DNA of 64,000 nucleotides from Nitrosopumilus sp. (GTDB lineage: Archaea; Thermoproteota; Nitrososphaeria; Nitrososphaerales; Nitrosopumilaceae). Below, one piece after another: positions 10,177-50,624 of this stretch. The notes under the pieces are model-generated. The model was not told the DNA's origin. It was given only the letters and a program-made list of their open reading frames with translations, and ran no database searches. The stretch's first letter is position 1. Every line of letters begins with the position of its first letter. Location: positions 768,001-832,000 of the forward strand of contig OZ240211.1 of assembly GCA_965197525.1 (NCBI GenBank), read 5' to 3'. The position numbers and the translations under genes were made by a program.

Positions 10177-10292
10177 GTGTTTACCTTATCACATTGTCTT
10201 GACGGGGTTTTATAGGTTTATGTAAAAAATTGATTTTAGACACATACAAATAGTACAAAAACGGGCGCTGTCAAGTTATAGAGACCTTATTT

Positions 10293-11531
10293 ATGAGGAT
10301 AGGCGTACATAAATGCCCCAAAATCATAGAATATTTGTTGAAGGCAGTAAAGTCAATAGCACAAAAATATACGCCAAACTCTGACCTAATGGATATGATG
10401 GCCACATTCACAGAAATGGTTAACCGTTGCATCAAGATAGGGTTAAAAGAAGACACACACAATATGAAAAGGCTATCATGTCTATGCTATCACGAATTGA
10501 GAGACTATGACGTTTTATCGTCATACAAACTAAATGCAATATCAAGGGCTGCTGGCATATTGGCAAACAGAAAACAGTCAATAAAACGTGGTGTTAAGGT
10601 TAGATACCCAAAGGTAACAAAGCCGTTTATCACTAATTGTTACGGTATAAAACACAATGGTGCACTACTCACAATCCCATACAAGAGTAGAAATCCAATC
10701 AACATCTTGTTAAACCCGCATACCCAAAAAATCCTGTCAAATCCTGCCTTGACAGTACGCTCGTTTTCATTGACTGCCTTTAGCATCAATCTTTGCGTTT
10801 CCAAGGAAACTGAAAGGATAAAATGCACCAAGACAGTGGGAATCGATAGAAATTTGAGGAATGTTACATGTGGCAATGAGGAGCAAGTAACATTTTACAA
10901 GACAAACAAACTGCTATCCATAAAAGAGAACACCATGCACGCCAGAGCCGGATTCCACAGAAATGATCGCAGAAAGAAAGGTCAATTCTGGAAGATAAAA
11001 CAGCGAAGAATGACCAATAGAACAAAACAATACATACACAGAATATCAAAAGATATTGTGGATAATGCCGTCAAAGAAAAGGCTGTAATCGTTCTAGAAA
11101 ACCTAAAAGGAATTAAAAAACTCTACAAAAAAGGAAATGGTCAAGGCAACAAATACAGGCGCAGATTAAACGGATGGCAATTCTACGAGTTACAACGCCA
11201 AATAGAATACAAAGCCCAATGGGTCGGGCTCCCGCCAGTCGAATATGTAGACCCAAAAAACACGAGCACGCAGTGTCCAAGATGCGGAAAGAAACTCCAA
11301 GAGGACATGCAACACAGTCGTAAAATGTCGTGTAATAATTGCGGATTGTACATGGACAGAGACATTGTAGCTGCCATGAACATATCGCGCAAACCGTCCC
11401 CTAGGTTTAGGGATAGTAGAGATGACATAGGTGAAGCGCAGTCCGGTGTTTTTGAACCGGTGATGATGGAACCCTGCATACCGGTAATCCAGATAGTCGA
11501 TATGTCAAAGTCGAGTGATAGGAGGATGTAA
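10293..11531 (+). CDS. tnpB: TnpB RNA-guided endonuclease (IS200/IS605/IS1341-type)
   Basis: RuvC motifs GIDRN (D), VLENLKGI (E) and MDRDIVAAMNI (D); Zn finger CPRC...CNNC. Real start is probably TTG at about 10338. Confidence 0.93.
   Translation: MRIGVHKCPKIIEYLLKAVKSIAQKYTPNSDLMDMMATFTEMVNRCIKIGLKEDTHNMKRLSCLCYHELRDYDVLSSYKLNAISRAAGILANRKQSIKRGVKVRYPKVTKPFITNCYGIKHNGALLTIPYKSRNPINILLNPHTQKILSNPALTVRSFSLTAFSINLCVSKETERIKCTKTVGIDRNLRNVTCGNEEQVTFYKTNKLLSIKENTMHARAGFHRNDRRKKGQFWKIKQRRMTNRTKQYIHRISKDIVDNAVKEKAVIVLENLKGIKKLYKKGNGQGNKYRRRLNGWQFYELQRQIEYKAQWVGLPPVEYVDPKNTSTQCPRCGKKLQEDMQHSRKMSCNNCGLYMDRDIVAAMNISRKPSPRFRDSRDDIGEAQSGVFEPVMMEPCIPVIQIVDMSKSSDRRM
11394..11525 (+). ncRNA. Predicted TnpB omegaRNA scaffold (E1); boundaries approximate
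   Basis: Overlaps the 3' end of tnpB; conserved in all five elements with covarying hairpins (here CCGGT-gtttttga-ACCGG). Confidence 0.55.
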
Positions 11532-11551
11532 CTTGTTAAATCAACAGGTAC

Positions 11552-12808
11552 CTATGACTTCACAGAACCGTTAACAGTGACTAGAACAGAGTCAGGCTCA
11601 GATAATGGTAAAAAATTATCAAGAGACTTCCATACAAAGGTCTCAATTGTGTATGTTCCAGAGGTTTTAGGAATCCAGGACTGCGATACGTCAATACGCT
11701 GCTCAGGTGGAACTTTACTTTGGAACCACGATAAAAACTCAATGGTCCCATCAGAGGCCTTTACTTGAAAGATGTAGGCAAATGGTTGTGATGCAACGAT
11801 GTCAGGGTTTGTTACAGAGCCAACCATCTGAAAGGGAGTATCCACAGATAAAGGTACGGTTATCGGTTCACCAAAACTATTAGACATTACAACAGGAGAG
11901 CTCTCAAGTTTGTTAAGATACAATGATTCGACTCTGATTGATGATTCAACAGATAAAGTATTAGACGAGTAAACGTTGGAGTCAGGTAAAGTGTGATCAT
12001 GATATCTTGCATATAGATGATCACCTGATTGCACATAGAGTCTATTGCCATTAGATGGCAGATGTTCAGACAGAGATACGGCAACAGTAAAAGAGCCAGA
12101 ATCAGCGGTTGTCTCAACTGCGCGTCCTATGATTCCTGCAACATCAGAATCTGTGTACATATGCACCATAACGGTATCAGGGAATTGAGGATTCAGATTC
12201 ATGTCAGGGTCAATGACACGAACTGTGATAGAATCAGCATTACTGCCATCTAAAAAAAAGACACCGTCATCATTATCATTATTATTATTATGATTATCCA
12301 TATTGCCATGCAAAAGTTCAATGATGCCAGTATTCCAAGCAACATTTACAGTATGTAAGAGCAAAACATCGTCTGCGAATTCAAATGATATGGTTATGCC
12401 TGAATCAGGCTCAACTTCTAGATAACCATTAGTTGGTCCGGTGCCACCGGTACGAGGTGTCGTATCATCAACACCATCACCATCAACATCATATGCAAAT
12501 CCAGTCAGGGTAACTTCTGCTGTAAAGATTCCAGAGTTTGCATCAGTTTCAACAAACCGGTAAGGCATAAGAGAGTGATCAGATGTTGCAATCTTGATTG
12601 GATGTGTGTCAGTATCCCCAATGGTATCAATCAGATATCGGTCAGTATTCCAGCTAGGTGATACGATCGTCATGTAGATTTTATCAGTCCAAGTATAGAT
12701 TGATTTGTCAGTAAGGATAGGAGCATAGGGATTGTAGTAATCAGGTATAGGCTCACCCTCATCTCCGAAGGCAGTAAAGAGAATAATCAGCGGAAGAGAC
12801 AAAAACAC
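11552..12808 (-). CDS. Secreted thaumarchaeal hypothetical protein (Ig-like/S-layer-like domains)
   Basis: Signal peptide; VETDANSGIFTAEV and VIDPDMNLNP motifs; C-terminal WIPKTSGTYTIETFVW. The last codons (GSVKS-stop) come from the E1 right TIR. Confidence 0.75.
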   Translation of the reverse strand: MFLSLPLIILFTAFGDEGEPIPDYYNPYAPILTDKSIYTWTDKIYMTIVSPSWNTDRYLIDTIGDTDTHPIKIATSDHSLMPYRFVETDANSGIFTAEVTLTGFAYDVDGDGVDDTTPRTGGTGPTNGYLEVEPDSGITISFEFADDVLLLHTVNVAWNTGIIELLHGNMDNHNNNNDNDDGVFFLDGSNADSITVRVIDPDMNLNPQFPDTVMVHMYTDSDVAGIIGRAVETTADSGSFTVAVSLSEHLPSNGNRLYVQSGDHLYARYHDHTLPDSNVYSSNTLSVESSIRVESLYLNKLESSPVVMSNSFGEPITVPLSVDTPFQMVGSVTNPDIVASQPFAYIFQVKASDGTIEFLSWFQSKVPPEQRIDVSQSWIPKTSGTYTIETFVWKSLDNFLPLSEPDSVLVTVNGSVKS

Positions 12809-12889: not shown

Positions 12890-13143
12890 GGTTCTGTTAA
12901 CCTATCGGAGCTTGGTTCATAATCTTATCGGTGTTAACTGTCGGGGCTTTTGGGCACAATCACTTCTGCTATTAAAGATATAAAGTAAAGGGTTCTGTTA
13001 ACTTATTGAGGAGTAATTCTTGCTGTTAACTGTCGAGAGGTCAAACCGTACCAAACCTAACACAAAATCCTGATTTTATTAAATGTAGAATATTTCTAGA
13101 TTCTGTTAAGTTACCGTCGCCTGATTCTTCCTGTTAACTATCG
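12890..13143 (+). repeat. Six direct copies of a TIR-like motif (CTGTTAACYRTCG) arranged as three pairs
   Basis: Motif cores at about 12894, 12931, 12995, 13023, 13103 and 13131; pairs recur about every 101-108 bp. Confidence 0.7.
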
Positions 13144-13158
13144 TCACCCGTCCTAAAA

Positions 13159-13633
13159 GGAATAAGAAAGTTGTACAAAAAAAAAGGAAATGGCCATGAT
13201 GCAGGCAGGATTTTGATGGAATGGTTTTTAATCCATAGGAAATAAATACAGACGCAGATTAAACAGCTGGCAATTCTACGAGCTACAACACCAAATACAA
13301 TACAAAGCCCAATGGGCAGGACTATCAGTCGAATTTATAGATCAAAAACACGAGCTCGCAATGTCCAAAATGCGGAAAGAAACTCCAATAGGACATCAAT
13401 ACAAACGAAAAATATCGTGTAATAATTGGGGATTGTTCGTGGACATAGATGTTATAGATGACATGAACATATCACACAAACTGTTCCCTAGGTTTAGGGA
13501 TAGTAGAGGTGACGTATATGAAGCGCAGTCTGGCACTTTGGTGCCGGTAATGTTGGAACCTGGTATAACACCACCAGTAATCCAAATAGTCGATATGTCA
13601 AAGTCGTGCAATCGTGGTTATGTCCCTCGATAA
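13159..13633 (+). pseudogene. tnpB: 3' remnant of tnpB including the omegaRNA region
   Basis: GIRKLYKK...RRRLNSWQFYELQHQIQYKAQWAGL through IQIVDMSKS, broken by frameshifts. Confidence 0.85.
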
Positions 13634-13650
13634 CACAACAGAACCGGAAA

Positions 13651-27909: not shown

Positions 27910-28724
27910 TCGGCCATCACGTTAATTTTTCCTGGTCTGTATCCTTCTGCATCGATTTTGACTGTATTGAAGCCAATCAATTTTAATTTTTCAGTGATCT
28001 GCTGTAATGTGACACCATCAATGGCAGGTATCATTTTTTTATCTACTTCGATCTTGGCAGAACCGTCAATGTCACGAACTCGAACCTGTTTGATGTTTGT
28101 TAGTTGTTTGATGATGGTCTCACCTAACTCTATACGAGTTAGTCTCTCAGCAGTAACTTTGGTGCCCCAAGGGATTCTAGACGCTAGGCATGAATTTGAT
28201 GGCTTGTCATATACAGACAGACCAACCATCTCTGCTGCTTCTCTAACCTGAGATTTGGAAAAACGGGTATCAACTAGAGGACTTTGGATTCCATTCTGCC
28301 TTAATGCTTGAATGCCAGGCCTATAGTCACGGAGGTCGTCAAGATTGGTACCATCGACGATAACTGTAATGTTGTGCTGTTTTGCTAGCTGAACTAGTTT
28401 ACTTCCCAGCTCCATCCTACAATGGAAGCACCTGTTTGAATCGTTTTTTGTAAACTCGTCGTTCTCAAGTTCGTTATAGTTTAAGACGAGTTGTGTGATG
28501 CCAATCTCAGAACAGACGTGTTTGGCAGTAGCAAGTTCTTCTTCTGACAGAGTCTTATAGTCAGCAGTTACAGCAATAGACGCATTACCTAGTTTTTGAA
28601 ATGCAGCGTATGCTACAAGTGCACTATCAACACCTCCTGAAAGCGCAATCATTACTCTTTCTTTGCCCTCAAACCAATTTACAAGATCATCAAGGGCAGT
28701 CATTGCTACTCTCCAATTTTTCAA
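27906..28724 (-). CDS. larE: ATP-dependent sulfur transferase LarE (nickel-pincer cofactor)
   Basis: PP-loop ALSGGVDS, RCFHCR, SCLASRIP and QVRVR motifs. Confidence 0.9.
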   Translation of the reverse strand: MKNWRVAMTALDDLVNWFEGKERVMIALSGGVDSALVAYAAFQKLGNASIAVTADYKTLSEEELATAKHVCSEIGITQLVLNYNELENDEFTKNDSNRCFHCRMELGSKLVQLAKQHNITVIVDGTNLDDLRDYRPGIQALRQNGIQSPLVDTRFSKSQVREAAEMVGLSVYDKPSNSCLASRIPWGTKVTAERLTRIELGETIIKQLTNIKQVRVRDIDGSAKIEVDKKMIPAIDGVTLQQITEKLKLIGFNTVKIDAEGYRPGKINVMAD

Positions 28725-30003
28725 TCTCTCGTCTAAGTAATGATTCTGTCTCCCTTATTGATTTACCAAGAATGTCAGATATTCTCTTTAGATCATCAAA
28801 CTCTATCTTCAAGCTAACGTTTCCCTTAAAAAAAGAACGCTTGTAATTTACATGAAATGTTTGATCATTTAAGGTCAGAGAGGCATTATGAGAAGAACGA
28901 GAGACGATAAATCGTGTTGAATCAGATACGCGAATTCCCAATGTTCCAGTCTCAGATATCAAAGTGTCGACTATTCCATCGATGGTATCACCAGTACAGA
29001 TAACAGATACAAGATTTGTAGGTCTTCCTTTTTTTGTAATTCCGTGATAGATGGAGATGTCTAGTGCGCCTCGGCTCATGACTTTTTCAACAAGGTTTCC
29101 CAGGATCTCACCTGAGACGTCATCAAGATTTGTTTCAAGAATCTTCACAGAATCGGTTTTAAGAGCATCATCGCAGTTGTGGTTATTGTTAGAGGTATTG
29201 TGATTGTCTTCTTTTTCATATTTGTTATTGTTATCAGCTCCAACTACAGATCCACGAATAACTTTCAAAACGTTTGCAAAGCTATCAAAATCATTCTGTC
29301 CAGCGCCATACCCAACTGAATCAACTTGCATTAATGGGCAATACCTTGCAGATTCATTTACCAGGTTTACTAGTATACATGCACCAGTAGGAGTTGTAAG
29401 CTCTTGATCCGCATCGCTACCTTGAATAATTAAATCAGAGTTCTTAAAGATCTCAAGAATTGCACTTGCGGGATTAGACATCGTGCCATGGGAAAAAGTT
29501 ACAGATCCACTGCCAACTGAAACAGGAAGGCAGAGAATCCTTTCATCAAATAGATCTAAATCTTCTAACGCAATTGTAACGCCTACGATATCAATGAGTG
29601 TATCAATGCTTGATGCTTCGTGAAGATGAACAGACTCCCTTGCAACACCGTGAATCTTTGATTCAGAGGAGATCAGAGTATCAATGCAAGAGTCTGCAAA
29701 AATTTGTGCCTTCTGGGACAGTCCGAGTTCCAAGACAGAGTGAGCAATCGCTTCTTTGATTGCAGTACCGCTACGTTGACTAACAGAATCTTCGACTAGT
29801 CCTAATGCTAGTTGGAGAGAACTAATACCATGTTTTTGAATCCTCTCAAGAGCAATATGTGATATTGTAGATTCCGGAAGGAATTGAGCCGATCTTTTGA
29901 CTCCTTGGATAACTTTGTCTTTGTCAGCACCTAGATCGACTAGGGAACACAATAACATATCACCTGACACTCCTGCAATCTGAGGATCAATAACAACGAC
30001 CAT
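28690..30003 (-). CDS. larC: Nickel insertase LarC
   Basis: GVSGDMLL, VHLHEASSIDTLIDIVG, ELTTPTGA, ETNLDDVSGE and ETGTLGIR motifs. Confidence 0.92.
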   Translation of the reverse strand: MVVVIDPQIAGVSGDMLLCSLVDLGADKDKVIQGVKRSAQFLPESTISHIALERIQKHGISSLQLALGLVEDSVSQRSGTAIKEAIAHSVLELGLSQKAQIFADSCIDTLISSESKIHGVARESVHLHEASSIDTLIDIVGVTIALEDLDLFDERILCLPVSVGSGSVTFSHGTMSNPASAILEIFKNSDLIIQGSDADQELTTPTGACILVNLVNESARYCPLMQVDSVGYGAGQNDFDSFANVLKVIRGSVVGADNNNKYEKEDNHNTSNNNHNCDDALKTDSVKILETNLDDVSGEILGNLVEKVMSRGALDISIYHGITKKGRPTNLVSVICTGDTIDGIVDTLISETGTLGIRVSDSTRFIVSRSSHNASLTLNDQTFHVNYKRSFFKGNVSLKIEFDDLKRISDILGKSIRETESLLRREIEKLESSNDCP

Positions 30004-30086
30004 GATTGGAAATTATCAAAAATACTTATAAATTCGACTATAACCCAGCCATTAGATTTAATTATCAACGTTCAAGACAAAATTTC

Positions 30087-31001
30087 ATGATTACAATAAT
30101 TGGTTCTGGAAAAGTAGGCGGAGATGCTGCACTATTCTCGGCATTAAAAAAGATAGATAACGAAATTTTACTGCTAGATGTAGTAAAAGGGCTCCCACAA
30201 GGAGAGGCAATGGATATTAATCACATGCTATCAGAGCAAGGAATCGATGTAGAAGTAAGAGGTTCAAATGATTTTTCAGACATGAAAGGATCAAATGCTG
30301 TTGTGGTAGTAGCAGGGTCAGGAAGAAAACCAGGAATGACAAGGATGGATCTATTGAAGATTAACTCATCGATTGTAAAGAGCGTTGTAGAGAATATCAA
30401 AAAATACGCAGACGACTCTATAATAATACCAGTTACAAACCCACTTGACCCCATGACATACATCACTTACAAAGTATCAGGATTTGACAAGAGTAGAGTA
30501 TTTGGGATGGGAGGAATGCTTGATTTATCAAGATTTAAACAATTCATTCATCAGGCAACGGGATACTCGCGTGACTCTATCAGAGCACTAGTGATCGGAG
30601 AGCATGGAGAGAACATGTTGCCACTTCCGAGATTTTCAACAGTTTCAGGCATCCAACTATCATCATTTCTCTCAAAAGAAAAGCTAGATCAACTAGTTCA
30701 GGATACAAGACAAGTTGCAGCCAAAGTAATCGAATTGAAAGGATCCACAGTCCATGCACCAGGAAATGCAATATCGGCAATTCTAGAATCGATTCTAAGA
30801 GACAGGAAACAAGTAATACCGGTTGCAGCATATCTTGATGGCCAATATGGTCACTCAGATGTTACAATAGGCGTTCCTGCAGTTATTGGAAAAAACGGCA
30901 TAGACAGGATTGTAGAGTTGGATTTAGATGAGAATGAGAGGCAGGTATTTGATAAAGCAGTCACGGTTGTAAAAAGCGCGATTACAAGCATAAAGATCTA
31001 A
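30087..31001 (+). CDS. mdh: Malate dehydrogenase (LDH-like archaeal type)
   Basis: IIGSGKVG; [11 protein letters not shown] (MDH-type Arg); IGEHG. ATG at 30087. Confidence 0.93.
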
Positions 31002-31105
31002 TCTGTTTTTATACTGCTTGAATCTGTACGCATTAAAAAGACTGTAGATATTATTATAACTATATGATCTAAGCATTTTTTTATGCTATCAAGTAAAAGA
31101 TATCA

Positions 31106-31894
31106 TTGGAAATCGATGATATTTTAGAATCATTACGAGATGGAAAGATAACATCAGACAAAGCAAAAAAGCTTCTGTCATTGTATAGTATTGAAGAGAT
31201 AGAAGGATTTGCAAAAATTGACATAAACCGAAGAGACAGACGAGGGATACCAGAAGTAGTTTTTGCAGAAACAAAACAGCTAGATGAGATTAAAAAAATT
31301 ACAAAGCGAATTTTAGAGAAGACAAACTCAGTAATCATATCAAGAATAAACAAAGAGGATCAACCAAAGATCATAACATATGCGAAGAGATTAAAAGTCA
31401 AGATAAAGACTGGCAAGAACGCATCATCACTGCTGTTGTTTAAAAAACCTATCAAGTTTCAGGGAGGAGTAGTAGGAATCATTACTGCAGGTACATCAGA
31501 TATCAAGATAGCAGAAGAGTCAAGGCTGATGTGTGAGGCAATGAATTGCAGATGCATTACAAGTTATGATGTAGGGGTTGCAGGAATTCAAAGAGTGCTT
31601 CCAGTTTTAAAAGAGATGACAGAACATGACGTAGACTGTATAATAGTAGCAGCAGGAATGGAAGGGGCTTTAGCCACTCTAGTATCCACGCTAGTAGACA
31701 TACCGATCATAGGAGTCCCAACATCTGTAGGATATGGATACGGAGAGAAAGGAATTGCAGCACTTGCGTCAATGCTTCAGAGCTGTTCTTTGGGACTGTC
31801 AGTTGTGAATATTGATAACGGAATTGCAGCAGGTGCAATAGCTGCAAATATTGCAAATAGAGCAGTTAAGAAAAATAACTCCAAGAGAATATAG
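31106..31894 (+). CDS. larB: Nickel-pincer cofactor biosynthesis protein LarB (PurE-like carboxylase/hydrolase)
   Basis: RRGIPEVVFAE, AGTSDI, DVGVAGIQR, AGMEGAL, PTSVGYG and VVNIDNG motifs. Confidence 0.92.
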   Translation: MEIDDILESLRDGKITSDKAKKLLSLYSIEEIEGFAKIDINRRDRRGIPEVVFAETKQLDEIKKITKRILEKTNSVIISRINKEDQPKIITYAKRLKVKIKTGKNASSLLLFKKPIKFQGGVVGIITAGTSDIKIAEESRLMCEAMNCRCITSYDVGVAGIQRVLPVLKEMTEHDVDCIIVAAGMEGALATLVSTLVDIPIIGVPTSVGYGYGEKGIAALASMLQSCSLGLSVVNIDNGIAAGAIAANIANRAVKKNNSKRI

Positions 31895-32009
31895 CACCAA
31901 TGCTGCAAGATGAAATCTGACAAATTTTTGTATTTACTTGTACGCAGATTCAAGTACAGTCAGTAGAGACAACATCAAGCACGGGTTCTGTGAAGTTATC
32001 GAGGGTTAA

Positions 32010-32143
32010 CCCCTATAAACTTGACTTTGACATATCGACTATTCGGATTACCAATGGTGTGCCGGGTTCCGTCATCGCCGGCTCAAAAGTGCCGGACTGC
32101 GCTTCATCTATGTCATCTCTACTACCCCTAAACCTAGGGGGCA
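32010..32143 (-). ncRNA. Predicted TnpB omegaRNA scaffold (E2); boundaries approximate
   Basis: Hairpins CCCCT-aggttt-AGGGG and CCGGC-acttttga-GCCGG on the minus strand. Confidence 0.55.
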
Positions 32144-33200
32144 GCTTGCGTGATATGTTCATGGCAGCGATAATATCCCTGTCCATAAACAAACCGCAAT
32201 TATTACACGACATTTTACGATGTTGTTGCATGTCCTCTTGGAGTCTCTTTCCGCATTTCGGACACTGCGTGCTCGTGTTTCTTGGGTCTACTGTCTCGAC
32301 TGGAGGCAACCCGACCCATTGGGCTTTGTATTCTATTTGGCGTTGTAACTCGTAGAATTGCCACCCGTTCAATCTACGTCTGTACTTGTTACCTTGACTG
32401 TTTCCTTTTCGGTACAATTTTCTTATTCCTTTCAGGTTTTCCATGACGATTGCAGTCTTGTTTTTGACTGCGTTGTATACCATATCCTTTGAGATTCTGT
32501 GGATGTACTGCTTTGTTCTATTGCTCATTCGTCTCTGTCTTTGTTTCCAGAATTGACCTTTCTTCCTGCGATCATTTCTGTGGAATCCTGCCCTGGCGTG
32601 TATTGTGTTCTCCTTTATGGATAACAGTTTATTTGTCTTGTAGACTGTCACCTCTTCCTCGTTCCCACACGTCACATTTCTTAGGTTTCTGTCTATTCCC
32701 ATTTTCTTGGTGCACTCTATCTCTTGTACTGTTTTTGAAACACAAAGACTGATGTTCAGAGCAGTCAATGAAAACGAGCGCACCGTCAAGGCGGGATCAG
32801 ATAGGATTTTTTGGGTGTGAACGTTGAGTAAAATGTTGATTGGGTTATGTTTCTTGTATGGGATTGTGAGTAGTGCACCGCTGTGTCGTATACCGTAACA
32901 GTTTGTCATAAAGGGATTTTTGACTATTGGGTCTCTTATTCTGACACCTCGTTTGATTGACTGTTTTCTGTTTGATAACATGCCTGCAGCTCGTGATATT
33001 GCATTTAGTTTGTATGAAGACAGGATGTCATAATTACGTAATTCATGATAACATAACATGGACAACCTCTTCATATTGTGAGTGTCTTCTTTCAATCCTG
33101 TCTTGATGCAATGATTGACCATCTTTGTGAATATAGCCATCATATCCATTAGATCAGAGTTCGGCGTATATTTCTGTGATATTGACTTTATCGCTTTCAA
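32013..33200 (-). CDS. tnpB: TnpB RNA-guided endonuclease
   Basis: RuvC D/E/D motifs (GIDRN, MENLKG, MDRDII) and Zn finger intact; near-identical to the 49072 copy. Confidence 0.93.
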   Translation of the reverse strand: MKAIKSISQKYTPNSDLMDMMAIFTKMVNHCIKTGLKEDTHNMKRLSMLCYHELRNYDILSSYKLNAISRAAGMLSNRKQSIKRGVRIRDPIVKNPFMTNCYGIRHSGALLTIPYKKHNPINILLNVHTQKILSDPALTVRSFSLTALNISLCVSKTVQEIECTKKMGIDRNLRNVTCGNEEEVTVYKTNKLLSIKENTIHARAGFHRNDRRKKGQFWKQRQRRMSNRTKQYIHRISKDMVYNAVKNKTAIVMENLKGIRKLYRKGNSQGNKYRRRLNGWQFYELQRQIEYKAQWVGLPPVETVDPRNTSTQCPKCGKRLQEDMQQHRKMSCNNCGLFMDRDIIAAMNISRKLPPRFRGSRDDIDEAQSGTFEPAMTEPGTPLVIRIVDMSKSSL

Positions 33201-33316
33201 CGAATATCTTACGGTTTAGAGGTTTATACAATTTAGGGATTAACAGATAACCCTCGATAACTTCACAGAACCCAAGCACGTAAATGATATATAACATATA
33301 TTGAATAGTTTTATAG

Positions 33317-34897
33317 TTGTCAGGCAAACGTGTCGTACTAACTGCTGATCGTAGTTTAATGACAAATTATCGTGGAAACTTCTTATACGGATTTATTGCA
33401 TGTGGTCCCTATGAAGTATTACCAGAGTGGGTCTTTGACAAAGTATTTTGCCCTTCAGTTGAGACTGACCCAACAACAGGACAAGTCAAAGTTGCCCAAG
33501 TTGGACTGCGAAGAATAGAAAGTTCGTTACTACAGGGAGGATACAAGAGAGAAGATGTATTTATGGCACATCCTGAAATGTTAGCAAAATCAATAGGGCC
33601 TGATACCAAAGTTGTTGGGGTCAATGTAATGGATCCGTTAGGAATGGCGCCGGTTACAACAACAATGTCTCCTGAAAAGTTATCGTATGTTGCAATGAAG
33701 TTCAAAAAGATGTGTGCCAGTATAATTCAGCTCAAGAAAAAATATGATTTTAAAGTTGTAGTAGGCGGTAACGGTGCATGGGAGCTTGCAAAATCAGATA
33801 GAATGAAGATACACGGAATAGATACCGTAGTTGTAGGCGAGGCAGACGAATTAGCAGTAGATCTATTTCAAGATTTAGAAAAGAATGACGCCCCAGAGAT
33901 GATGCATTGTTTTGTAAGAAACCTTGAGAATATTCCGGTTATAGAAGGTCCTACAATTAACTCACTGATAGAGGCAATGCGTGGCTGTGGAAGGGGATGT
34001 GATTTTTGTGATGTTAACAAGAGATCAAAGAAAGATCTGCCTCTAGATAGATTACAGTACGAGGCAAAAACAAATTTGGATTATGGGTTTGACTCGATTT
34101 GGTTACACTCTGATGAGATGTTGCTTTATGGATGTGACAACAGAGACTTTATTCCAAACAGGGATGCCATAGTTGATTTGTGGAAAGGGTTGAAAGGATT
34201 GGGTGCAAACTTTGTTGGAACAACACATATGACATTCTCAGCAGTGGCAGCAGATCCTACACTCATGAAGCAAATTTCACATATCAACGAGCAAGACAAG
34301 ACAGGAAGATGGCTTGCTACCAACTTGGGAATTGAGACAGTAGCTCCTGCAATGGTAAAGAAACACCTAGGCGTCAAGACAAAACCATTTGCACCTGAAG
34401 AGTGGGGAAGCGTTGTAAGAGAAGGTGCAAAGATTTTAAATGAGAACCATTGGTTCCCTGCAGCCACAATAATTATTGGTTGGCCTGACGAGACACCGGA
34501 TGATATCCAACATACGATTGATATGATAAGTGACTTCAAAGAGATGGACTTTAGGGGGCTGGTGGCGCCATTGCTGTACCAAGACTTTAGTGAAAAGAAC
34601 TCTATGCATTTTGGGAATTTAAATGAGGCGCAATTTACATTGTTTTGGAAGTGCTGGGAGAATAACTTGCGTGTAATTAATGACATTATTCCGATTATTC
34701 TCAGAAACAAGACGTATGGGCCACCGATGAAGGTATTCATGTACGGAATTCTCAAAGCAGGCACATGGGCAATAATGAGATATCTTCGCGGACTGTGCAA
34801 AGACTTGTTTAACGGCAGAACACCTGATGAGATTATTGATAAATATGCAAGAAGTAGATCGGTGACTGCACCTAAAATTCAAACAAAGAAATTATAG
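33317..34897 (+). CDS. Radical SAM protein (B12-binding/radical SAM-like family)
   Basis: CGRGCDFC (CxxxCxxC). Confidence 0.85.
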   Translation: MSGKRVVLTADRSLMTNYRGNFLYGFIACGPYEVLPEWVFDKVFCPSVETDPTTGQVKVAQVGLRRIESSLLQGGYKREDVFMAHPEMLAKSIGPDTKVVGVNVMDPLGMAPVTTTMSPEKLSYVAMKFKKMCASIIQLKKKYDFKVVVGGNGAWELAKSDRMKIHGIDTVVVGEADELAVDLFQDLEKNDAPEMMHCFVRNLENIPVIEGPTINSLIEAMRGCGRGCDFCDVNKRSKKDLPLDRLQYEAKTNLDYGFDSIWLHSDEMLLYGCDNRDFIPNRDAIVDLWKGLKGLGANFVGTTHMTFSAVAADPTLMKQISHINEQDKTGRWLATNLGIETVAPAMVKKHLGVKTKPFAPEEWGSVVREGAKILNENHWFPAATIIIGWPDETPDDIQHTIDMISDFKEMDFRGLVAPLLYQDFSEKNSMHFGNLNEAQFTLFWKCWENNLRVINDIIPIILRNKTYGPPMKVFMYGILKAGTWAIMRYLRGLCKDLFNGRTPDEIIDKYARSRSVTAPKIQTKKL

Positions 34898-35350: not shown

Positions 35351-35738
35351 GGTTCTGTGAAGTTATAGAGACCTGAAACATGAATGAATGAATATCGTTA
35401 ATTATATCATAATTATGTTGAATCCAACAAACACGAACACGCAATGTCCAGGATGCGGAAAGATATTCCAAGAGGACATGCAATACAGATGTAAAATATC
35501 GTGTACTAATTGTGGATTGTTCATGAACAGCAACAACATTGCCATGAACACATCTCACAAGCTGTCCCCTAGGTTTAGGGATAGTAGAGGTGACATACAT
35601 GAAGCGCAGTCTGGCACTTTTGAGCTGGCAATGTCGGAACCTAGTACACCGGTAATCCGAATAGTCGATATGTCAAAGTCAAGTAATAGGAGAAACACAC
35701 CTTGGTAAATCAACGGGTACCTATAACTTCACAGAACC
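35351..35738 (+). mobile_element. 388-bp miniature element E4 (TIRs plus tnpB 3' end/omegaRNA region) with perfect 8-bp TSD
   Basis: TIRs identical for 18 bp (21/24); TATAATCA duplicated at 35343-35350 and 35739-35746; the interior keeps only the Zn-finger/tail part of tnpB. Confidence 0.93.
35561..35692 (+). ncRNA. Predicted omegaRNA scaffold in mini-element E4
   Basis: Same conserved hairpins as in E1-E3. Confidence 0.5.
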
Positions 35739-48753: not shown

Positions 48754-48917
48754 TGATTTAGCAATAAATTTAGAGCATTATAACTTTTTGAATGCGATGA
48801 TTTCATTACAATTTTAATAGCAGTTCTAAGATCAGCATGATTAGACAAAAATGATCAAATTGACTCTGTTACCATTTGGAATCAATTCATCGTATCACCT
48901 TGTTGTTTTTAGCTCCA

Positions 48918-48967
48918 GATAACCCGACAGAACCATAAAATTCACATCCCCATAACGTTACAGAACC
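48918..48967 (-). repeat. Two orphan TIR-like sites (GGTTCTGT...TTAT) next to E3
   Basis: Plus strand GATAACCCGACAGAACC and CATAACGTTACAGAACC, 33 bp apart. Confidence 0.6.
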
Positions 48968-49071
48968 GTATATCCAATAAGGTAATTAATGAAAAAGAGG
49001 GTTCTGTGAAGTTATCGAGGGTTATCTGTTAATCCCTAAATTGTATAAACCTCTAAACCGTAAGATATTCG

Positions 49072-50265
49072 TTGAAAGCGATAAAGTCATTATCACAGAA
49101 ATATACGCCGAACTCTGATCTAATGGATATGATGGCTATATTCACAAAGATGGTCAATCATTGCATCAAGACAGGGTTGAAAGAAGACACTCACAATATG
49201 AAGAGGTTGTCCATGTTATGTTATCATGAATTACGTAATTATGACATCCTGTCTTCATACAAACTAAATGCAATATCACGAGCTGCAGGCATGTTATCAA
49301 ACAGAAAACAGTCAATCAAACGAGGTGTCAGAATAAGAGACCCAATAGTCAAAAATCCCTTTATGACAAACTGTTACGGCATAAAACACAACGGTGCACT
49401 ATTAACAATCCCATACAAGAAACATAACCCAATCAACATTTTACTCAACGATCACACCCAAAAAATCCTATCTGATCCCGCCTTGACGGTGCGCTCGTTT
49501 TCATTGACTGCTCTGAACATCAGTCTTTGTGTTTCAAAAACAGTACAAGAGATAGAGTGCACCAAGAAAATGGGAATAGACAGAAACCTAAGAAATGTGA
49601 CGTGTGGGAACGAGAAAGAGGTGACAGTCTACAAGACAAACAAACTGTTATCCATAAAGGAGAACACAATACACGCTAGGGCAGGATTCCACAGAAATGA
49701 TCGCAGAAAGAAAGGGCAATTCTGGAAACAAAGACAGAGACGAATGAGCAATAGAACAAAGCGGTACATCCACAGAATCTCAAAGGATATGGTATACAAC
49801 GCAGTCAAAAACAAGACTGCAATCGTCATGGAAAACCTGAAAGGAATAAGAAAATTGTACCGAAAAGGAAACAGTCAAGGTAACAAGTACAGGCGTAGAT
49901 TGAACGGGTGGCAATTCTACGAGTTACAACGCCAAATAGAATACAAAGCCCAATGGGTCGGGTTGCCTCCAGTCGAGACAGTAGACCCAAGAAACACGAG
50001 CACGCAGTGTCCGAAATGCGGAAAGAGACTCCAAGAGGACATGCAACAACATCGTAAAATGTCGTGTAATAATTGCGGTTTGTTTATGGACAGGGATATT
50101 ATCGCTGCCATGAACATATCACGCAAGCTGCCCCCTAGGTTTAGGGGTAGTAGAGATGACATAGATGAAGCGCAGTCCGGCACTTTTGAGCAGGCGATGA
50201 CGGAACCCGGCACACCATTGGTAATCCGAATAGTCGATATGTCAAAGTCAAGTTATAGGGGTTAA
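49072..50265 (+). CDS. tnpB: TnpB RNA-guided endonuclease
   Basis: RuvC D/E/D motifs and Zn finger intact; TATAAA at 49044-49049, about 25 bp upstream of the TTG start. Confidence 0.93.
   Translation: MKAIKSLSQKYTPNSDLMDMMAIFTKMVNHCIKTGLKEDTHNMKRLSMLCYHELRNYDILSSYKLNAISRAAGMLSNRKQSIKRGVRIRDPIVKNPFMTNCYGIKHNGALLTIPYKKHNPINILLNDHTQKILSDPALTVRSFSLTALNISLCVSKTVQEIECTKKMGIDRNLRNVTCGNEKEVTVYKTNKLLSIKENTIHARAGFHRNDRRKKGQFWKQRQRRMSNRTKRYIHRISKDMVYNAVKNKTAIVMENLKGIRKLYRKGNSQGNKYRRRLNGWQFYELQRQIEYKAQWVGLPPVETVDPRNTSTQCPKCGKRLQEDMQQHRKMSCNNCGLFMDRDIIAAMNISRKLPPRFRGSRDDIDEAQSGTFEQAMTEPGTPLVIRIVDMSKSSYRG
50128..50260 (+). ncRNA. Predicted TnpB omegaRNA scaffold (E3); boundaries approximate
   Basis: Conserved hairpins overlapping the tnpB tail. 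Confidence 0.55.
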
Positions 50266-50624
50266 CCCTCGATAACTTCACAGAACCAAAAAGAGACATC
50301 ATAAACATGCAAAGATTGTGTAGGTATGATCCAACTGGCAAAGGAACGCATTGTTTTTGTATAGATATTGACGCACAAAAAGGAATCAAAAAATGCTGTA
50401 AATGCAATCAATGGAACGTTCAGGGGAATGACTGGACTAGTAATGAAGATTTTAGATAAGTAAATGCACGAGATCACAGGAATGGAATAATCACGAACTA
50501 ATTCTCTGAATTGATACTAGGAGCTTTGTTTATGACATGTACGTATAACCGATAGGAGTACTGAAAACCCTCTCTTCATTCTATCTAATGGTTTTTATCA
50601 GGGATTCTTTGAATTTTGGATTAC

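Follow-up and report, generated by a model that had tools for sequence, protein, structure and literature searches.

A TnpB-carrying element with IS6-like ends and a one-sided TAM-like flank motif, independently inserted in a Nitrosopumilus genome

Between a larB-like gene and a radical-SAM gene of a Nitrosopumilus genome lies a tnpB-bearing element, hereafter E2, which raises the question of what kind of transposon it is, which enzymes may have brought it there and whether its TnpB has any part in where such elements end up. E2 was studied in a window of 64,000 nucleotides, i.e., positions 768001–832000 of a 2.21-Mb single-contig genome that is 99% complete. A preliminary description of this window, made from the letters alone, had presented E2 as the recent twin of a second copy, E3, and had claimed that the whole TIR-tnpB-TIR unit was mobile. 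The features involved are collected in Table 1, in which positions refer to the window unless the contig is mentioned.

Table 1. Coordinates of E2, its sister copy, their parts and the surrounding genes. RE, right end; LE, left end, both in tnpB sense.
Feature	Position	Strand	Remark
LarC-like Ni-insertion protein	28690-30003	-	
Ldh/Mdh-family dehydrogenase	30006-31001		
larB-like gene	31106-31894	+	AIRC domain; RE side of E2
Predicted guide	31964-31983	-	RE-side TSD plus 12 nt of flank, predicted from geometry
E2 TSD, RE side	31976-31983		CAAGCACG, 8 bp
E2	31984-33272	-	complete non-autonomous element (IS6-like TIR - tnpB/omegaRNA - TIR), 1289 bp
E2 right TIR (tnpB sense)	31984-32008	-	25 bp; inner half pairs with segment following the RNA scaffold
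tnpB ORF of E2	32013-33200	-	395 aa; RuvC D/E/D and CxxC..CxxC zinc finger intact
Putative omegaRNA	32018-32152	-	conserved structured scaffold overlapping the tnpB 3' end
E2 left TIR (tnpB sense)	33248-33272	-	25 bp, GGTTCTGTGAAGTTATCGAGGGTTA
E2 TSD, LE side	33273-33280		CAAGCACG, 8 bp
TAM-like motif	33281-33283	-	TAA on the + strand, TTA in tnpB sense; directly 5' of the LE-side TSD; kept in relatives' empty sites
Radical-SAM gene	33317-34897	+	LE side of E2; conserved TATA-like box just past the TSD
E3 TSD	48992-48999 and 50288-50295		AAAAAGAG, 8 bp
E3	49000-50287	+	sister copy of E2, 1288 bp
DDE-carrying element	contig 746475-748444		1970 bp; TSD CTATTGTG

The inverted orientation of E2, its length, the 25-bp TIRs in common with E3 and a perfect TSD of its own had all been reported previously, and verification of the ends and of both TSDs bore this out. 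Between the two copies, compared over their full length, there are 17 substitutions and a single indel of 1 nt. Their identity runs from the first base at GGTTCTGTG to the last at CACAGAACC, and the flanks, of which 100 bp were included in the alignment, are unrelated. The TIRs of both copies are perfect, and the TSDs are perfect in both but different. The indel corresponds to an extra T in E2, which follows the conserved end of TnpB (...IVDMSKSS) and precedes the right TIR, and gives a C-terminal tail SKSSL* in E2 versus SKSSYRG* in E3; this tail varies freely among subfamilies. At the protein level E2 and E3 TnpB are 98.2% identical (dN 0.011, dS 0.036 between the genes), which agrees with the difference of a few residues noted before. 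Besides E2 and E3, at least 22 copies have the same boundaries with different TSDs, which supports the earlier claim that the TIR-tnpB-TIR unit is what moved. The pattern of the two copies is not a matter of chance, as the genome contains 16 copies at an identity of at least 94%, 12 of which are flanked by perfect 8-bp TSDs.

A comparison with relatives leads to the same conclusion. In at least 15 genomes of the same genus (Nitrosopumilus), the larB-like and radical-SAM genes are 23–50 bp apart without any element between them, and this adjacency in congeners identifies E2 as an insertion. An alignment of the intergenic regions of seven relatives shows an uninterrupted site, with CGTAAATGATATATAAC conserved right beside the insertion point. 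E2 is thereby confirmed as a real, independently inserted copy of the element. That a segmental duplication or gene conversion, instead of transposition, produced E2 and E3 is extremely improbable: similarity halts precisely at the TIR tips, where a duplicated segment would show homology past them, each copy has its own perfect 8-bp TSD, and the E2 site is empty in congeners. Mosaic variants in the young copies do speak for some recombination or conversion between copies, and segmental duplication was rejected for lack of homology between the E2 and E3 flanks beyond the TIRs. Exact 24-mers of the empty E2 site and of the filled E2 junction had no match in metagenome contigs, in which the host population is unsampled.

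Within the intergenic region, E2 looks to have landed just upstream of what appears to be a TATA-type promoter of the radical-SAM gene. Since the 8 bp at the insertion site were duplicated, the promoter-proximal sequence has been preserved. The surroundings of E2 (28690–31894) form a lactate-racemase-type cofactor cluster.

In addition to the 16 close copies, about 18 further full-length copies at 76–86% identity are present, so that some 34 full-length tnpB-only elements make up the family in this 2.2-Mb genome, together with MITEs. Nine copies constitute a young group with 10–30 pairwise differences. The portrayal of E2 and E3 as recent twins is overstated: both belong to these nine young copies, but they are not parent and daughter, given a dS of 3.6% and the fact that E3 is closest to another copy. 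Indeed, the nearest copy to E3 is found at contig position 164081 (15 differences), and E2 is equidistant from E3 and from the copy at contig position 2170934 (17 differences each). Variant sites common to several young copies occur in incompatible combinations, indicating recombination or conversion between these copies. Because of this mosaic sharing among the nine young copies, and because the closest copy to E3 is another one, E2 and E3 are, as read from these comparisons, siblings within one burst rather than a parent-daughter pair. Among the copies compared, no insertion site is common to this genome and that of Nitrosopumilus OZ245003.1.

Which enzymes may move such an element is suggested by its ends. 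The octamer GGTTCTGT is the terminus of many elements of differing sizes in this genome, and a genome search revealed 29 elements with inverted GGTTCTGT termini and perfect flanking 8-bp repeats. IS6 elements are defined by 8-bp direct repeats, short perfect inverted repeats, MITE derivatives and cointegrate transposition (PMC7986276), and E2 has ends of the IS6 type, with short perfect GG..CTGT-type TIRs and 8-bp direct repeats. Some of the GGTTCTGT-ended elements encode DDE transposases that score above the cut-off of PF13610 (DDE_Tnp_IS240), and the genome contains 7–8 IS6-like DDE transposase genes with the same termini. These proteins are long (378–383 aa) with N-terminal zinc-binding domains. 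Their top NCBIfam model is the IS6 family transposase NF033587, matched over its full length with 102.8–120.6 bits against a cut-off of 125; as these scores are below the curated cut-off, we refer to the proteins as IS6-like. The E2 termini resemble IS257-type repeats.

The sole ORF of E2 is tnpB, and an IS6-type transposase gene is absent within the element. Across the approximately 34 tnpB copies, no DDE gene was found in cis, and no DDE-carrying element with the exact inner TIR of E2 and E3 was found in the genome, the outer GGTTCTGT(G) being all that is in common. E2 is most plausibly a non-autonomous derivative that uses IS6-like ends, and not a strict member of IS6. Its ends, its TSDs and the presence of the enzymes suggest that it was moved in trans by IS6-like transposases encoded elsewhere. 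TnpB is classically found in the IS200/IS605 family, and tnpB-only IS1341-type elements are common (PMC10691335), so E2 might be taken for an ordinary tnpB-only element of this kind (IS1341 group), moved by a Y1 TnpA through single-strand peel-and-paste. This reading is highly improbable: the perfect 25-bp TIRs and the 8-bp TSDs of E2 have no counterpart in that family (PMC13565253), and a search of the 99%-complete genome for Y1 TnpA (PF01797) gave no match. With TIRs, TSDs and no Y1 TnpA, E2 falls outside the definition of IS200/IS605, and mobilisation of this type was rejected.

The IS6-like ends are also found around other contents on the same contig. At 920321–923722 and 699962–703151 they surround larger units in which a DNA methyltransferase lies beside a DDE transposase. 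In the former unit, the methyltransferase is joined to an HNH nuclease in one protein. Both units are IS6-like elements that are composite or carry cargo. An 851-bp element at 883991–884841 has perfect 24-bp IS6-like TIRs and the TSD TATTACTG, shows no tnpB or scaffold similarity, comprises only small lysine/glutamate-rich ORFs and has TTA on one side only.

The E2 protein matches the TnpB family models NF040570 (124.9 bits; cut-off 100) and PF07282 (75.3 bits; cut-off 26.3), and its PDB matches are TnpB and Cas12f chains. GIDRN, VMENL and MDRD are located at the RuvC catalytic positions of solved TnpB/Cas12f, and a C4 zinc finger (CPKC...CNNC) is present. The tnpB ORF is intact in 31 of the 34 full-length copies, and dN/dS between subfamilies is 0.10–0.15; as judged by this ratio, TnpB is under purifying selection. 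Over the last ~100 codons, dS drops 3–7-fold with dN unchanged. When 15 diverse copies are aligned over the scaffold (~130 nt), a consensus fold is obtained in which 7 out of 30 pairs show compensatory double changes. Moreover, eight MITEs keep exactly the left TIR and the last 300–400 bp, which comprise the RNA scaffold region plus the right end. Covariation, the drop in dS and the retention of the scaffold region by MITEs point to a putative omegaRNA scaffold that overlaps the 3' end of tnpB. An Rfam scan of the element (E up to 1) yielded no family. The segment between the scaffold and the end of the element folds into a hairpin in most subfamilies, with an outer stem in which the inner half of the right TIR pairs with the bases that directly follow the scaffold, and CACAGAACC is left single-stranded. 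In a comparison of ten TIR types, cognate segments pair more strongly than non-cognate ones (permutation p = 0.006), and the hairpin is missing in three of the ten. This suggests an omegaRNA that continues across the right TIR, with a guide beginning at the TSD.

A sharp sequence preference is present on one side of the elements. Read in tnpB orientation, the bases directly 5' of the left TSD are TTG or TTA, less often ATG or ATA. Position -3 is a T or an A in all 34 full-length copies, -2 is a T in 31 and -1 is a purine in 32. Every copy with an intact TSD (24/24) has T-purine at -2/-1 (binomial p = 2e-20) and 17 have TTR (p = 4e-18); the mirror motif after the right TSD occurs in 4 of these 24. 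The TSD abuts the motif in 24/24, and even the youngest copies have the motif. In E2 it reads TTA, in E3 ATG (48989–48991). The second Nitrosopumilus genome, OZ245003.1, has T-purine in 10/10. Homologs at 36–46% identity, with IS6-like ends and 8-bp TSDs, have GTA in Nitrososphaera and TTG in two Bathyarchaeota, and a distant Sysuiplasma homolog has GAT in place of the motif. For 13 DDE-carrying IS6-like elements with perfect TSDs (two from this genome with a readable TSD, 11 from relatives with enzymes 40–45% identical to those of this genome), TTR is found on 2 out of 26 sides, which is chance level. In MITEs, the side of the motif tracks the orientation of the scaffold remnant.

As a source of the signal in the left flank, a TATA-like A/T bias at -12 to -7 (external promoter) was considered and rejected. 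It has a KL of only 0.3–0.5 versus 0.7–1.3 at -3 to -1, and such a weak signal offers no explanation for the sharp motif. The motif looks like a putative TAM of this TnpB. In the empty site the order is motif, then TSD, then right flank, which fits a TAM and the adjoining target if the guide is taken from the right end. A point against this interpretation is that three nucleotides is short for the TAM of a prokaryotic TnpB.

Taking these observations together, we consider it somewhat better than an even chance that E2 is a TnpB/omegaRNA transposon with IS6-like ends that is moved in trans and homes at TAM-adjacent sites. IS6-like transposases from other elements would recognise the ends of E2, mobilise it and generate the 8-bp TSD. 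The omegaRNA most likely extends through the right TIR, and the guide would then consist of the 8-bp TSD and the right flank. In an unoccupied allele, the sequence matching this guide would lie directly 3' of the TTR (strictly T-purine) motif, i.e., a TAM and then a target. TnpB-omegaRNA could thus cut empty copies of its own insertion site, with the occupied chromosome copy as the template for repair (homing). Only TAM-adjacent insertions would be driven to fixation, E2 and E3 being two independent ones from the young burst. IS6 transposition is thought to be replicative, without excision (PMC7986276), so that homing would be non-restorative (as discussed in PMC13565253), unlike the restorative role in IS605/IS607. 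If IS6 elements do not excise, homing of the gene-drive type must be assumed, which counts against the favoured model.

The siting of the elements could also be explained without homing. TTR may simply be the target preference of the transposase (perhaps of one IS6-like paralog that serves these ends), with TnpB as a passive passenger in siting. DDE transposases can indeed have target preferences, and just two DDE elements in this genome have a readable TSD, the enzymes of the other 11 controls being diverged. Nevertheless, we deem this unlikely, as the motif is one-sided and tied to the orientation of tnpB despite perfectly symmetric 25-bp TIRs, and as MITEs follow the orientation of their scaffold remnant. 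The near absence of TTR beside the 13 DDE-carrying elements also goes against it, in particular since the DDE element at contig position 746475 has no such motif, in contrast to TnpB elements whose TIRs agree with its own in the outer 18 bp. Another option is that TnpB-omegaRNA acts during insertion itself, in that TAM binding and unwinding offers the TTR-adjacent 8 bp to the IS6-like transpososome in a guide-independent, CAST-like manner. The exact spacing in 24/24 copies and the presence of the motif even in the youngest ones would agree with this, and Cas12k-guided Tn7-like transposition provides an analogue in which descendants of TnpB steer DDE transposases. The same exact spacing is, however, predicted by selection through homing, neither a cis linkage of transposase and TnpB nor adaptor proteins were found, and we know of no precedent for guide-independent targeting by TnpB, which makes direct assistance at insertion a doubtful alternative to homing. 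In a broader sense, TnpB-omegaRNA may have been adapted to a TSD-making, probably non-excising IS6-like transposon, either as a homing (gene-drive) nuclease or as a TAM-directed insertion factor; we put this forward tentatively, at slightly less than an even chance. If true, it would explain why 24/24 TnpB insertions, and not the transposase-bearing ones, are sited at TTR-N8.

TnpBs accompanied by DDE transposases and symmetric ends have been described before, in a study that distinguishes the branches DDE-1 to DDE-6 and names IS630 (Altae-Tran et al. 2023, PMC10691335), and a review of 2026 mentions ISL2, IS630 and IS1031 as DDE partners of TnpB (PMC13565253). As in these branches, the TnpB of E2 is enclosed by symmetric ends of a DDE family, not by ends of IS200/IS605 or IS607, and solo copies are mobile. 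Unlike in these branches, the partner of E2 is IS6-like, a type not named in the text consulted. The E2 family further differs in that a transposase is never in cis, in its strong proliferation, with about 34 full copies and a number of MITEs within 2.2 Mb, and in having a strict one-sided T-purine motif outside the TSD. DDE-borne TnpB was already known in 2023. In a literature search that covered only a minority of subscription journals, no link of TnpB to IS6-type ends, no TAM-like motif outside a TSD and no paper treating both Nitrosopumilus and TnpB was encountered, and co-mentions of TnpB and "IS6 family" were unrelated.

With IS6 elements (IS26, IS257 and archaeal clades; Varani et al. 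2021, PMC7986276), E2 shares the GG..CTGT-type TIRs, the 8-bp repeats, the MITEs and the occurrence of a DDE_Tnp_IS240-type transposase in the same genome. For the entire family, that review names one member carrying a passenger (PMC7986276). Unlike IS6, E2 has no transposase gene and carries TnpB and a putative guide RNA as cargo, and the DDE proteins in its genome, at 378–383 aa, score just under the NCBIfam IS6 cut-off. We know of no target motif for IS6. The TnpB-omegaRNA of ISDra2 (IS200/IS605) uses the TAM TTGAT and acts in restorative homing. E2 resembles ISDra2 in its RuvC-type RNA-guided nuclease family, its putative omegaRNA scaffold, which overlaps the 3' end of tnpB and would reach into the right end, the T-rich motif 5' of its left end and a guide presumed to derive from the right flank. 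By contrast, E2 has no Y1 TnpA, it has TIRs and a TSD, the 8-bp TSD lies between the TAM-like motif and the element, and transposition of the replicative IS6 type may leave no excised donor site to restore. Fanzor, the eukaryotic TnpB (PMC3627910, PMC13565253), similarly represents a TnpB homolog that is carried as cargo in TSD-making, often non-autonomous DDE transposons, whereas E2 is archaeal and has the canonical RuvC arrangement. The TAM of Fanzors is described as including the 5' TSD; in E2 the motif is upstream of a TSD that is variable in sequence.

In IS200/IS605 and IS607, the natural role of TnpB is established as the restoration of excised copies, and its role in TSD-making, possibly never-excising DDE transposons is regarded as an open question (PMC13565253). 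The family of E2 constitutes a clean natural experiment: one small genome offers dozens of independent insertions, the motif is strict, orientation-specific and found only with the TnpB/guide-RNA module, and matched transposase-bearing elements are without it. Whether TnpB is a homing drive or a target selector for a DDE transposon thereby becomes directly testable. A further benefit of the family is its compact archaeal TnpB, for which a short TAM is predicted. Genome annotations should not assign such elements to IS200/IS605.

Other traces of the family are present in the window. A MITE of 388 bp (35351–35738) is bounded by IS6-like TIRs and by a perfect TSD (TATAATCA) that follows a TTA; of a tnpB element belonging to the E1 subfamily, it retains only the left TIR and the last ~325 bp (scaffold and right end). 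E1 itself (10264–11569) represents a diverged tnpB subfamily, ~82% identical to E2, with a degenerate left TIR (GGCGCTGTCAAGTTATAG) and without a matching TSD. Three tandem left-end-like TIRs (starting at ~12890, 12992 and 13099, spaced ~100 bp apart) are followed by a decayed 3' fragment of tnpB, a recognisable scaffold and a right end at 13645; the region 12890–13645 looks like a scrambled remnant cluster. Two solo TIR remnants of the right-end type are located in tandem at 48917–48967, ending at 48934 and 48967 (33 bp apart), the second of which stops 33 bp ahead of the left end of E3. They may reflect repeated insertion or deletion beside existing ends, by analogy with IS26-type elements. 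Finally, two copies in Nitrosopumilus OZ245003.1, L047 and L050, have reciprocally swapped TSD halves (TAGAAACT/TTATGTTA and TTATGTTA/TAGAAACT), which is the signature of a chromosomal inversion via recombination of two inverted copies; this exchange is compatible with, and not diagnostic of, IS6 replicative cointegrate transposition.
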